A DNA stretch of 64,000 nucleotides from an uncultured Alphaproteobacteria bacterium (GTDB taxonomy: Bacteria > Pseudomonadota > Alphaproteobacteria > HIMB59 > GCA-002718135), in the NCBI GenBank assembly GCA_902621725.1, contig CACNND010000001.1:8562-72561 (forward strand). The letters run 5' to 3'. Both the position numbers and the translations under genes were made by a program. Below the pieces are notes generated by a model. That model did not search any database. It was given only the letters and a program-made list of their open reading frames with translations, and had not been told where the DNA came from. Shown piece after piece: positions 15,618-63,433 of the stretch (the first letter of the stretch is position 1; every line of letters starts with the position of its first letter).

Positions 15618-16331
15618 TTATTTTTTCTCTAATTGTCTGAAAAAAATTGTTGAGAATTCATCCATAAATGTTTCCAAGGATATAAAATATTTTGATAAAT
15701 CGTTTGAAATTTTATTGTAAGCAACTACGGCAGGTATAGCCACAAAAAGACCTAATGCAGTTGCAAAAAGGGCCTCAGCAATTCCTGGCGCAACTACTGC
15801 TAAATTTGTATTTTGAGCTATTGCAATAGATTTAAAACTATTCATTATACCCCAGACTGTCCCAAATAACCCAATAAAAGGTGCGGTTGATCCAGCAGTT
15901 GCAAGGAAAGTTAAATTTCTCTCAACACTCTCACTTTCCTTATTAAAAACAACCGTCATTGATCTCATCATTCTATCCTTTAAAGAATTAATATCTGAGA
16001 TGTCATTATCAAATTGAGATTTACTCTTTTTCCATTCTAAAATTGCAGCACAAAATAATTTTGATTTTGGATCTGTCTGATTAAAATTTAAAGTTTCATA
16101 TAAATCTTCAAATGAATTTCCAGACCAAAAAATATCTTCAAATTCTTTTTCAAGTTTTTTTAATTGTCTAATTCTTAAAATTTTTGAAATTATTACATTC
16201 CAAGAATAAAGAGAGGCTAAGATTAATATTATAATTACAGATTTGACAACAATGTCAGCCTGCATGAATAAAGCAAGCATTGAAAAATCTGGTGCTTCTG
16301 TCGATAAATTTGTACTATTAATATCTGCCAT
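15618..16331 (-). CDS. tolQ: TolQ
   Basis: LATAGSTAPFIGLFGTVWGIM, VAPGIAEALFATALGL. Confidence 0.97.
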   Translation of the reverse strand: MADINSTNLSTEAPDFSMLALFMQADIVVKSVIIILILASLYSWNVIISKILRIRQLKKLEKEFEDIFWSGNSFEDLYETLNFNQTDPKSKLFCAAILEWKKSKSQFDNDISDINSLKDRMMRSMTVVFNKESESVERNLTFLATAGSTAPFIGLFGTVWGIMNSFKSIAIAQNTNLAVVAPGIAEALFATALGLFVAIPAVVAYNKISNDLSKYFISLETFMDEFSTIFFRQLEKK

Positions 16332-16336
16332 AATTA

Positions 16337-16630
16337 TTATTTTTTAATTTTTTCAAGATCGCTACTATGAACCATAACCCAAAACCCTGGTCTATTTTTT
16401 TCACATAACGCTATTACTGGTGTCTTACCCTCCTCTTTCGCAAGTTTTGCAGTATCATCCCATAAACTAATTGCTGTATGTTTTGCTCTTAGTTTACATT
16501 CTATAAATAATTCTTCATGGATTACATCAGCTCTTGTCACTTTACCATTACCGCCGCTCAAAGGTGTCCTTTTACCATTAAAATAATTTGCAACATCTCT
16601 TTCTCTTTTTTTCCAGGCTTTATCAGGCAT
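16337..16630 (-). CDS. PD-(D/E)XK nuclease, putative Hjc-like Holliday junction resolvase
   Basis: E10 (KRERDV), R21-x3-S25G, D35 (ADV), E44-C-K46, GKTPVIAL: order and spacing of the Hjc motif. RBS AAGGAA upstream. Occupies the ruvCAB slot between yebC and tolQ. Confidence 0.75.
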   Translation of the reverse strand: MPDKAWKKRERDVANYFNGKRTPLSGGNGKVTRADVIHEELFIECKLRAKHTAISLWDDTAKLAKEEGKTPVIALCEKNRPGFWVMVHSSDLEKIKK

Positions 16631-16641
16631 CTATATTCCTT

Positions 16642-17394
16642 TCATTGGGCTGTGAGTGAAGATAGAACATTGTCATCAACTTCAAAATTTGATGATACAA
16701 CTTGAACGTCATCATTGTCTTCTAAAACTTCAAGTAATTTAAATAGTTTGTCCGCTGTTTCTTTTCCAATATTTATATTATTTTTACTTTTCCAAATTAA
16801 ATTTGCAGAGTTAGTCTGACCATACTGTTTAATTAATTTATCATTAAGTTCATGTAAATGGTTTTGATCACAGTATATTGAATATTCTGTTTCATTAATT
16901 TCATAATCTTCACTATTATTTTCAATAAGAAATTCTAAAAGTTGATCTTCTTTTACTAAGTTTTTATCGAGAGTGATATTTCCAAATCTGTCAAAACCAA
17001 AACTAACACTTCCTGTTTCACCCAAATTACCTCCATATTTACTAAAAGAGGACCTAATCTCAGCAGCTGTTCTATTTTTATTATTTGTAAGTGCCTCAAC
17101 TATTATTGCAATACCTTCAGGGCCATATCCTTCATATCTTACTTCTTCATAATTGCTATCAGGATCATTTCCTTGACCTTTTTTTATTGCTCTTTCAATA
17201 TTATCTTTTGGCATATTGAGTGACTTGGCCGACGAAATTGCAGATCTTAATCTAATATTACTCTCAATATCTTCACCTCCTACTTTGACAGCAACAGAAA
17301 TTTCTCTCCCAAGTCTTGAAAAAACTTTTGCTCTTTTTTTATCTTGAGCACCTTTACGATGCATAATATTTTTAAATTTCGAGTGCCCTGCCAT
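16642..17394 (-). CDS. yebC: YebC/PmpR (TACO1) family protein
   Basis: MAGHSKFKNIMHRKGAQDKKR, YEGYGPEG, TNNKNRT, LEDNDDVQ. Confidence 0.98.
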   Translation of the reverse strand: MAGHSKFKNIMHRKGAQDKKRAKVFSRLGREISVAVKVGGEDIESNIRLRSAISSAKSLNMPKDNIERAIKKGQGNDPDSNYEEVRYEGYGPEGIAIIVEALTNNKNRTAAEIRSSFSKYGGNLGETGSVSFGFDRFGNITLDKNLVKEDQLLEFLIENNSEDYEINETEYSIYCDQNHLHELNDKLIKQYGQTNSANLIWKSKNNINIGKETADKLFKLLEVLEDNDDVQVVSSNFEVDDNVLSSLTAQ

Positions 17395-17473: not shown

Positions 17474-18265
17474 TTATGTCTCTTGAATTGGGGTGATATT
17501 TTTAGCTAAACCAGTATTAGTATCAATCTCTATTAAAGCCCCGCATACTGTTATGTTTTCAGTAGCAGGTGTAAATCTACCTTCTGCCCTGTACCCCTTA
17601 ACAAATCCATGTATTGGATTATTTATATCAAAACCAATTATTGAATTATAATCTCCTGACATCCCCACGTCTGTTTGATAGGCTGTACCTTTAGGCAAAA
17701 TAACACTGTCTGCCGTTGGCACATGAGTATGTGTGCCTAAAACTGCCGTAACTTGTCCATCAACATAATATCCAAATGCCTTTTTTTCAGAAGTAGCTTC
17801 ACCATGCATATCAATAATTATCGCATCACATGTACTGCCTAACTTCTCTTTTTGAAGAAATTCAATTATGCCTTTAAAGGGATCATCTAATGATAAATTC
17901 ATAAATAATCTGAGCATTACTTGTACTACTATAATTTTTTTTCCATTTAAAAGTTCAAGCTTATAATATCCTTTTCCAGGAACTCCATCAGGATAATTCA
18001 AAGCTCTGATTATTTTTGGATTTTCTTCAATATAAGAAAGCATATCTCTTTGATCCCATGCATGATTCCCAAGTGTAAGTAGATCAATTCCGCTAGAAAA
18101 TAATTCTTCTGCATCCTTTTTTGAAAGTCCATAACCAGAAGTAGCATTCTCACCATTAGCAATAATCATGTCTGTATTATATTTAGATTTGAGTGTTGGG
18201 ATAATTTCTTTAATTTTTTTTCGTGACGCCTTGCCGATAATATCACCTATAAAAAGAATTTTCAT
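17474..18265 (-). CDS. ymdB: YmdB-like (TIGR00282) metallophosphoesterase
   Basis: GDIIG, NGEN, TLGNH, DMHGEATSEK, GTHTHVPT, TDVGM. Confidence 0.95.
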   Translation of the reverse strand: MKILFIGDIIGKASRKKIKEIIPTLKSKYNTDMIIANGENATSGYGLSKKDAEELFSSGIDLLTLGNHAWDQRDMLSYIEENPKIIRALNYPDGVPGKGYYKLELLNGKKIIVVQVMLRLFMNLSLDDPFKGIIEFLQKEKLGSTCDAIIIDMHGEATSEKKAFGYYVDGQVTAVLGTHTHVPTADSVILPKGTAYQTDVGMSGDYNSIIGFDINNPIHGFVKGYRAEGRFTPATENITVCGALIEIDTNTGLAKNITPIQET

Positions 18266-18843
18266 TGAAAACTGTATAAATTTTTTTCAGTAATAACATA
18301 ATCCACTTTAAAATCAAATTTGTCTATGGGTATGTAATCTAACTTTTGTTCTTCATATGCATAGGCTACAGAAATGAATTTATGATTAATTTTATTTAAA
18401 TAAGCAAAAGTCCTGTCATAATATCCTCCACCATAACCTAATCTGTTGCCATCGTTATCAAAGGCTAAACACGGAACAAAAATTAATTCAGGATTTAAAA
18501 TTTTATTTTTATTTTGAGGCTCTAATATATTCATATACCCTTTTACAAAACTCTCATCACTCTTGAATTGCTTAAAGCGTAAATGACTATTTTTACTTTC
18601 AATTACAGGAAGGCATAAAATTTTATTTTTTTTAAAGATAAGATTATTAAGCTCTCTTGTATTTATTTCAGAATTTATAGAAATGAAGCTGGATACTATA
18701 TTAATTTCTTGAAAGTTTATTTTTTCAAAAAGTTCATTGAACAAAGATAAAACAAAATGAGATGGATTATTGTTAAAAATTTTATCTCTGATAATTTTTT
18801 GTTCTTTTCTAATTATTGATTTTTCATCTTTAATATTATTCAT
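18262..18843 (-). CDS. ygfA: 5-formyltetrahydrofolate cyclo-ligase
   Basis: VPCLAFD..GNRLGYGGGYYDRT, D...DYVITE. Confidence 0.95.
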   Translation of the reverse strand: MNNIKDEKSIIRKEQKIIRDKIFNNNPSHFVLSLFNELFEKINFQEINIVSSFISINSEINTRELNNLIFKKNKILCLPVIESKNSHLRFKQFKSDESFVKGYMNILEPQNKNKILNPELIFVPCLAFDNDGNRLGYGGGYYDRTFAYLNKINHKFISVAYAYEEQKLDYIPIDKFDFKVDYVITEKNLYSFQ

Positions 18844-19255
18844 AATAAGAATTCTTAATTATCTCAATTAAACCTTCTACTTTTTTATTTATTTCATCAA
18901 ATTCTTGATCTAATTTCAATTTTTCATCTTCTAAAATTCTATTTTCATTTTGTAGTTTTAGTATTCTATCTTTAAGTTCTAAATTATTCTTAAGATATTC
19001 TTCATTTTTGGAATCATTTATTTCTAAACTTTTTTGTATATTTAATTTTTCTGAAAGCTCTGCTTGAAGCTCAATAGAGAGAAGTGATAATAATATAGTA
19101 TCACTTATTTTTCCATTAGAATATTTTGGATTTTGTAATTTATTATCAATTTTTTCGTTAATTAAATTAATTGAATCTATGATTTTTTTTTCATCTTTTT
19201 TTTCATATTCTAATGAAATTTCTCTGTTTAAAATTTTAGTCTTGTGAAAAGGCAT
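18836..19255 (-). CDS. zapA: Cell division protein ZapA (divergent, extended coiled coil)
   Basis: N-terminal ILNREISL..EKKDEKKI followed by LLSLLSIELQAEL and a coiled coil; upstream of ygfA, divergent from tkt. Confidence 0.65.
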   Translation of the reverse strand: MPFHKTKILNREISLEYEKKDEKKIIDSINLINEKIDNKLQNPKYSNGKISDTILLSLLSIELQAELSEKLNIQKSLEINDSKNEEYLKNNLELKDRILKLQNENRILEDEKLKLDQEFDEINKKVEGLIEIIKNSYYE

Positions 19256-29063: not shown

Positions 29064-30485
29064 TCAACTAATAGTTTTAAATGCTGATAATGCTCTATTT
29101 CTTGTTTCTTTTAAATCTACAATCGGTAATGGATATGAGTTACCAATCTCAAAATTATATTTCTTTTGGTCTTCCTTAGACATCTCCCAGGGATTATGAA
29201 TATATTTTTTTGGAATATTATTCAACTCAGGAACAAATTCTTTTACATAATCACCATCTGGATCAAATTTTTGGCCCTGCAAAATTGGATTAAAAATTCT
29301 AAAATATGGACTTGCATCAGCGCCACAACCAGAAATCCATTGCCAACCTGCAGAATTAGAACCAACATCAGCATCAACTAAAGTATCAAAAAACCACTCT
29401 TCTCCATTTTTCCAGTGCAACAATAAATTTTTTGTTAAAAATGAACCTACAATCATTCTTACTCTATTGTGCATCCACCCTGTTTTATATAGCTGTCTCA
29501 TTCCAGCATCAACAATTGGAATTCCAGTTTTACCATTATGCCATAATGATAGATGTTTATTATTTTTTATCCATGGAAATTTATTAAATTTAGCTTGTAT
29601 AGGTTTTTGGATCATATCTGGATAATGAAACAAAAGATTATAAGAAAAATCTCTCCAACCAAGTTCAGCAAGAAATTTTTTTTTGTCTTCAGGATTAATT
29701 TTTTTTTCATTATTAACTGTATCATAAACTTTCAAAGCAGATATTTCTCCAAAATGAAGATAAGGTGATAATTTTGAAGTTAAATCTTTATCTGGTCTAT
29801 CTCTTCCAACTGAATAGTTGTTTGCTTTTTCTGAAATATATTTTTTTAATTGTAATTTTGCATTACTTTCACCAGGTGTCCAATATTTTTCAATTTTTTT
29901 AATCCATTGATCTTTTTTGTTTGTTAAATTTAAATCTTGTATAGTTACTTCATTTTTAAATTTTGAATTGGCGAAACTTATTTTAGTTTTTATTAATTTA
30001 TTATCTTTTAGTTTTAGTAATTCATCACAATGTCGCCAGTAAGGAGTAAATACTTTAAAAAAGGTTCCAGTTTTATTTTTAATATTCCAAGGTTCGTTTA
30101 GAAGATATCCATTGTGTGAATCACATTCAATTTTAGAAGAAATAACTGAAGTTTTTATTTTAATATCTCTTTCAATTGAATATGGATCGTATAGTCTATT
30201 CCAAGATATACATTCAATATTTGAGTTCTTTAATATTGAAGATATAATTTTCTCTGGATCACCAGCAAATATATTAAGTTTTCCATTATGCTTTTGTATT
30301 GAATAATATAAACTAATTAAAGATTTTTCTAACCACCATTTGGATGTTGATCCTATTCTTTGATTTAAATCAAAAATATAAATTGGGATTATTTGATCAA
30401 CTTTTTTTGAAAGTGACAATATAGATGGATTTTCTTGTAATCGTAAATCTTGTCTAAACCAATGAACCCCATAAGTTACTGTCAT
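29064..30485 (-). CDS. phrB: Class I CPD DNA photolyase
   Basis: WFRQDLRLQEN, TSKLSPYLHFG, GKTGIPIVDAGMRQL..TGWMHNRVRM, WQW..G.GADASPYFRIFNP. Confidence 0.96.
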   Translation of the reverse strand: MTVTYGVHWFRQDLRLQENPSILSLSKKVDQIIPIYIFDLNQRIGSTSKWWLEKSLISLYYSIQKHNGKLNIFAGDPEKIISSILKNSNIECISWNRLYDPYSIERDIKIKTSVISSKIECDSHNGYLLNEPWNIKNKTGTFFKVFTPYWRHCDELLKLKDNKLIKTKISFANSKFKNEVTIQDLNLTNKKDQWIKKIEKYWTPGESNAKLQLKKYISEKANNYSVGRDRPDKDLTSKLSPYLHFGEISALKVYDTVNNEKKINPEDKKKFLAELGWRDFSYNLLFHYPDMIQKPIQAKFNKFPWIKNNKHLSLWHNGKTGIPIVDAGMRQLYKTGWMHNRVRMIVGSFLTKNLLLHWKNGEEWFFDTLVDADVGSNSAGWQWISGCGADASPYFRIFNPILQGQKFDPDGDYVKEFVPELNNIPKKYIHNPWEMSKEDQKKYNFEIGNSYPLPIVDLKETRNRALSAFKTIS

Positions 30486-55869: not shown

Positions 55870-56355
55870 TTGTATATTAGTTTAGTGGACGAAAAAAAAC
55901 TCTTAAAATACGCCGTTGATTATTTAAGCAAATATGATTCTTCTAAGATTAATTTGGTTAATGTACTTAAAAGAAAAATTTTAAGATTAAAAACTACAAA
56001 TTATGAAAAGGGAAAGCTTTTTAATATAATTGAAAGTATAATAATAAAATTAGAAAAAAATAAATTTATTGACGATGACAGATATAGTTCAACAAAAATT
56101 TTATCTTTATCAAATTCTGGAAAATCTAAGAATTTTATATTCAATTACTTAGTAAAAAAAGGAGTTAATAAATCTCAAATTCAAAATAATTTAAATTTAA
56201 TAGAACAAAATAATGATAATTGGGAATTAAATTCAGCAAGAATTTTTGCTAAGAAAAAGAAATTATTAGAAAAAAATCAAAATTATGAAAAAAGTTTAGC
56301 AAAAATGGCAAGAGCAGGTTTTAGCTATGATATATGTAAAAAAATATTAGGTTAG
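55870..56355 (+). CDS. recX: RecX regulatory protein
   Basis: A..YLSKYDSS...L..VLKRK, IDDDRY, GKS, L..KGV, LAKMARAGFSYD. Confidence 0.85.
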   Translation: MYISLVDEKKLLKYAVDYLSKYDSSKINLVNVLKRKILRLKTTNYEKGKLFNIIESIIIKLEKNKFIDDDRYSSTKILSLSNSGKSKNFIFNYLVKKGVNKSQIQNNLNLIEQNNDNWELNSARIFAKKKKLLEKNQNYEKSLAKMARAGFSYDICKKILG

Positions 56356-63356: not shown

Positions 63357-63433
63357 TGGCGCGCCTGAGAAGAGTCGAACTCCTAACCTTATGATCCGTA
63401 GTCATACGCTCTATCCAATTGAGCTACAGGCGC
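63357..63433 (-). tRNA. tRNA-Arg (ACG)
   Basis: Minus strand GCGCCTGTAGCTCAATTGGATAGAGCGTATGACTACGGATCATAAGGTTAGGAGTTCGACTCTTCTCAGGCGCGCCA; cloverleaf, anticodon ACG, encoded CCA. Confidence 0.97.

Follow-up and report, generated by a model that had tools for sequence, protein, structure and literature searches.

The stretch of DNA analysed in this study, hereafter the window, comprised 64,000 nucleotides of an uncultured alphaproteobacterium of the HIMB59/AEGEAN-169 type order (contig CACNND010000001.1), and the gene in question, named X here, encodes a 97-residue protein predicted to be a phage-type, Hjc-like nuclease of the PD-(D/E)XK class. X (16337-16630, on the minus strand like all features of this locus) was found in the slot of ruvC-ruvA-ruvB-ybgC. 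Its upstream anchor was yebC (16642-17394; PF01709/PF20772) and its downstream anchor was tolQ (15618-16331; PF01618), which opens the tol-pal genes, and a ymdB-like phosphoesterase gene (17474-18265), recognized by profile match and locus comparison, lay 5' of yebC as a conserved part of the context. X was the sole open reading frame (ORF) between yebC and tolQ, no phage or insertion sequence genes were found between these anchors, and the gaps were 11 bp (aaggaatatag) on the yebC side and 5 bp on the tolQ side. The Shine-Dalgarno-like AAGGAA (16636-16641) immediately followed the stop codon of yebC and was separated from the start codon (ATG) of X by 5 nt. The local order was ymdB-yebC-X-tolQ-tolR-tolA-tolB-pal-ybgF-tilS-ftsH-glmM, in which the names other than ymdB, yebC and tolQ are those we take from the translations. 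The ORF, ribosome-binding site, gaps and absence of phage or insertion sequence debris agreed with an earlier reading made from the letters alone (the sequence-only reading), which had proposed that a probably virus-derived resolvase replaced RuvABC at this position.

X is not a chance ORF, because 374 homologues were present in the protein database and the best 120 of the 374 were 78-100% identical to it. The yebC-X-tolQ synteny held in 123 of the 124 loci fetched from the order, the remaining locus being yebC-X with no tolQ match, and a metagenome scan found the yebC/tolQ context around X in 79 of 80 kept loci and a different context in one. The ratio of nonsynonymous to synonymous substitution rates (dN/dS) of X, summed over 63 close alleles, was 0.017. 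The GC content at third codon positions was 0.20 in X versus 0.15-0.19 in four neighbour genes, and its codon GC was in line with theirs. In comparisons across the order's two families, identity was 68-74% for X versus 53-58% for yebC and 45-49% for tolQ. A record titled 'Gammaproteobacteria bacterium TMED225' (L090) carries the whole X locus at 80-98% protein identity, so its taxon label is probably wrong.

The distribution was followed in 122 genomes of the order with at least 70% completeness, including one (G037) that is a single contig and 99% complete. X was present as one full match in 112 of them, in 22/22 genomes of at least 90% completeness and in 9/9 genera, which shows a fixed and not a sporadic gene; the ten genomes with no match were 71-88% complete, and one genome had an additional weak partial match. 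X was absent from all 396 alphaproteobacteria sampled outside the order. The Pfam profiles of RuvC (PF02075), RuvA_N (PF01330) and RuvB_C (PF05491) each matched none of the 122 genomes, G037 included, and the same profiles matched in 8-10 of 14 control genomes. When RuvA, RuvB and RuvC of two other alphaproteobacteria were searched by tblastn against the genome of the window itself (G000), only other AAA+ proteins were matched. The ybgC gene, normally between ruvB and tolQ, has not been lost, and tblastn placed it on another contig of this genome (C36:3285-3656). Outside the order, RuvC was found in 193 of 198 alphaproteobacteria (a tally that includes one unpublished genome, G168), and ruvC lay within 300 bp after yebC in 45 of 50 genomes, namely those with a RuvC position listed among the 60 best yebC rows. 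Three hand-picked loci (L218, L219 and L232) showed yebC-ruvC-ruvA-ruvB-ybgC-tolQ in full. Since RuvC and the yebC-ruvC adjacency prevail outside the order and no Ruv profile matched inside it, the yebC-ruv slot is ancestral and the displaced ruv genes are gone from the order. Both the genome-wide absence of the displaced genes and the same position, as in a non-orthologous displacement, were found, and the sequence-only reading was borne out on the slot and on the loss of RuvABC. This reading also withstood all those of its own refuting checks that can be made in silico.

The putative active-site and DNA-binding residues of X are encoded at 16493-16603 (E10, 16601-16603; R21; S25; G26; D35, 16526-16528; E44, 16499-16501; K46, 16493-16495). 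All of these, with the E44-C-K46 arrangement and the GKTPVIAL and GFW stretches, had been read correctly before. Among 99 X homologues E10, R21, S25, G26, D35 and K46 were invariant and E44 was conserved in at least 90%, and all seven residues were the same as in X in the other 101 rows assembled for the X tree. X therefore carries the conserved E...D...E-x-K set plus the conserved R and S, which we take to be the equivalents of the Hjc catalytic residues, and a catalytic role would follow from the PD-(D/E)XK motif. The modelled X showed a PD-(D/E)XK fold with Hjc ranked first, the top structure matches being Hjc/Hje (PDB 1gef, 2wcw, 1ob8 and 1hh1) and the Thermus phage 15-6 Hjc (7bgs) at 14-21% identity. 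The PHROG 2002 'Holliday junction resolvase' profile was matched over the full length of X (E 3.2e-10, residues 3-94) and also by the copy of the second family (E 2.2e-7). X did not match the Pfam Hjc model (PF01870; 1/99 X relatives at E 0.028), PF24608 PDDEXK_15 (11/99 X relatives weakly, best E 2e-4) or RusA (PF05866), and the PDB sequence searches gave no match. Nor was the RuvC profile (PF02075) matched, the model of X matching PD-(D/E)XK structures instead. By its profile matches X is an Hjc-like member of PHROG 2002 outside Pfam Hjc; the earlier Hjc-like assignment is supported by the fold and not by the Pfam model.

The homodimer model of X scored 0.70 versus 0.00 for the control, a mark that 20 of 30 solved pairs and 1 of 23 single chains attain, and supports a dimer. 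The interface looks swapped, residues 69-74 of one copy contacting 41-46 of the other, and X may thus be a domain-swapped dimer. Nineteen homologues of 153-182 residues (P0128, P0135, P0144-P0146 and 14 more in alignment A2) combine a single active-site half with two copies of the C-terminal half, of which the second is better conserved in 18/19, and are candidate single-chain, one-site versions of such a dimer. In P0259 (318 residues) an X domain is fused to a putative uracil-DNA-glycosylase domain, judged by eye from its motif. A further candidate fusion is in Bacteroides phage BS162P1 (L206:4323-5315), where a gene annotated 'DNA endonuclease I-HmuI' overlaps an X match with its 3' portion and may encode it.

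The nearest relatives of X were phage genes, as expected if it is virus-derived. IMG/VR contigs carried copies at 69-80% identity, and in 63 of 81 viral loci (some contigs having been fetched twice) X was followed downstream by a large terminase resembling the one encoded by Pelagibacter phage EXVC032P Baldr, with identities of typically 76-85%. Host genes of the X locus were found in none of the 81. The cultured phage Baldr (L207, OQ414636; 645-3184) lacks X, whereas its uncultured relatives bear X just upstream of the terminase. More distant viral copies (57-66%) were located among phage helicase, primase, polymerase and terminase genes. In the X tree (36 rows picked from the 102, 97 columns) the bacterial and near-phage copies formed one clade with support of 100/99, and five of the six outgroup rows were viral contigs, the sixth being without context. 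Because the outgroup is mostly viral, the five distant viral loci checked bear phage replication or packaging genes and X is confined to this order among the alphaproteobacteria sampled, these sequences are more simply read as coming ultimately from phages, with transfer probably running from phage to host. A host-to-phage transfer, or separate captures by the two families from the same phage group in place of a single event at the base of the order, is less probable but deserves serious consideration, and it concerns the origin only. The bacterial rows required two changes in the careful tree, family 1 grouping with a phage copy (L167; 88/84), the near-phage rows held together as a single clade were not rejected (p 0.25), and phage copies (up to 80% and 77%) matched each family about as well as, or better than, the other family did (68-75%). 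On the other hand, a single bacterial clade was not rejected either (p 0.39) and the position of X is identical in both families, in addition to the viral outgroup and the restricted host range.

Other recombination genes were also searched. Among the 34 better genomes of the order, 26 had a nearly complete RecG, five a partial one and three an unclear one, and 12 passed the curated cut-off. RusA, RecU and RadA/Sms were not found in the five order genomes tested (RadA 0/5 above the cut-off), and YqgF was found in all five. A RecA-sized ORF appeared among the weak matches of the RadA profile search and is presumably RecA. Because RadA/Sms was not found, RecG is the one branch-migration helicase candidate that the searches revealed, and the suggestion that X works with RecG or RadA is retained for RecG only.

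The post-yebC slot was occupied by other genes in other marine lineages. In a second order, gene Y (168 residues, PF24608/PHROG 244) follows yebC and precedes tilS (L214:7437-7943, minus strand; L215:1745-2251, plus strand; loci L236-L250), the ruvCAB and tol-pal genes are gone from this locus, and RuvB_C was matched in 1/19 genomes. This single match is a divergent 229-residue ORF (L277:18-707, plus strand, genome G543) on a stretch with a GC of 0.39 versus 0.32 at the yebC locus of the same genome; it may be contamination or a mobile RuvB-like gene. Gene Z (164-165 residues), a phage-type RuvC-like gene of PHROG 1770, lies between yebC and ybgC or tolQ in Pelagibacteraceae-type genomes (minus strand in L235:1001-1498, L282:998-1495 and L283:993-1490; plus strand in L284:2233-2727), and no RuvB_C match over the cut-off was found in 151 genomes of its order. 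Gene W (126-127 residues, Hjc-like, PHROG 244) stands between yebC and tolQ in a second family of that order (L285:1035-1415, minus strand; L286:2317-2700, plus strand), which makes two fillings of the slot in a single order. The HH probability was 96.8 for X versus W and 1.3 for X versus Y. Four different resolvase-like families thus occupy the slot in lineages without RuvB. The evidence leans towards a scenario in which streamlined ocean alphaproteobacteria (the HIMB59-type order, Pelagibacterales/SAR11 and a third small-genome order) repeatedly dropped the near-universal RuvABC, and each time a different phage stand-alone resolvase gene was placed behind yebC, from at least four families and two folds, X being the smallest, a domain-swapped dimer whose likeness to its phage relatives is such that alleles were perhaps captured more than once. 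The swap is not unique to the order of the window, since other streamlined alphaproteobacteria show it with other genes.

On these results, we consider it likely that X is a Holliday-junction resolvase that derives from a phage and acts alone, and that it replaced ruvC-ruvA-ruvB in situ early in the order and is now a core gene. The computed support comprises fixation, purifying selection, absence of ruvABC, the same slot, the fold, the motif, the modelled dimer, the phage relatives and the presence of RecA and RecG. In the proposed pathway, RecA would form strand-exchange joints and RecG would move or remodel them, supplying branch migration; the X homodimer, needing no RuvAB, would recognize the shape of the four-way junction and nick two opposite strands by two metal-dependent E10/D35/E44/K46 sites. 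We infer cleavage by X, its junction specificity, the partnership with RecG and co-transcription with yebC. Such a replacement is probably how these cells complete recombination, because an equivalent swap, involving other phage genes, has taken place in further marine lineages with small genomes. It is unlikely that X is instead a broad debranching endonuclease, one that cuts forks, flaps and D-loops as well as junctions and covers the post-synaptic step once served by RuvABC, but makes no junction-specific symmetric cuts. T7 endonuclease I is a model for such activity, the phage homologues adjoin terminase and replication genes where debranching precedes packaging, single-active-site tandem forms exist and the modelled dimer is intertwined; but the best structure matches are the junction-specific Hjc/Hje, a RuvC-fold gene occupies the same slot in another lineage, and fixing a promiscuous nuclease among the core genes would presumably carry a cost. 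That X works outside recombination, for instance in defence or other DNA/RNA processing, and that junctions are handled by YqgF or by RecG and replication, is very improbable, since although YqgF is present in the genomes tested and Rocha et al. 2005 (PMC1193525) name it as a possible stand-in where RuvC/RecU is missing, the same text has YqgF co-occurring with RuvC in most bacteria, it matched 10 of our 14 controls, four resolvase-like families share the slot in lineages without RuvB, and a fixed single-copy gene with so low a dN/dS would be unlike a defence gene.

Two further repair-related matches in the window were below the curated cut-offs, a photolyase-family gene (29064-30485, minus strand) and a weak RecX match (55870-56355, plus strand). 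6S RNA is usually encoded between zapA-like and 5-formyl-tetrahydrofolate cyclo-ligase genes. At 18262-19255 the cyclo-ligase gene overlaps the upstream ORF, which we take to be zapA-like (it had no NCBIfam match), and leaves no room for it. The Rfam scan of the window gave one tRNA only (63360-63433).

HIMB59 has been argued not to be part of SAR11 in the abstract of PMC3815206, the text of which contains no ruv or recombination term, and the part of PMC12374537 on the reduced recombination kit of SAR11 names RecBCD, RecF and MutSL and not Ruv. No description of a replacement of RuvABC by X was found in the literature covered (subscription papers and figure images lay outside it). Our results appear to extend RuvAB loss to entire orders of free-living bacteria of the sea, in which it is replaced by a phage gene, and offer a concrete answer to how such cells finish recombination, with a rare repeated same-site domestication of phage genes into core DNA repair. 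If true, the use of a domesticated viral enzyme to resolve junctions without RuvAB would have arisen convergently in cells that rank among the most abundant of the sea, and a 97-residue resolvase would be a minimal model enzyme.

As compared to the archaeal Hjc/Hje (PF01870) and the Thermus phage 15-6 Hjc, X shares the fold, the small PD-(D/E)XK domain and the E...D...ExK order, and its model supports a homodimer; but Hjc/Hje have about 120-126 residues, whereas X is shorter, falls below the Pfam model, is possibly domain-swapped and is a bacterial core gene in the ruv slot. The PHROG 2002 copies of Baldr-like marine podoviruses are its close kin, but the host X is chromosomal, single-copy and ameliorated. 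The PF24608/PHROG 244 phage proteins form a neighbouring Hjc-like family that includes Y and W. Among 117 genomes, Rocha et al. (PMC1193525) report RuvAB missing only in RecA-less ones plus Wigglesworthia and Aquifex (A. aeolicus), both with RecG, a precedent in two genomes, and note that prophage proteins may resolve junctions. RuvABC and X share the post-yebC position and the proposed job, but neither homology nor fold, and X has no RuvA or RuvB partner in the 122 genomes of its order. In E. coli, RusA with RecG bypasses the loss of ruvABC, which is a parallel in that a stand-alone prophage-type resolvase and RecG cover for RuvABC; RusA, however, belongs to a different family and is a cryptic prophage gene, whereas X is fixed at the ruv locus across an order of free-living bacteria.
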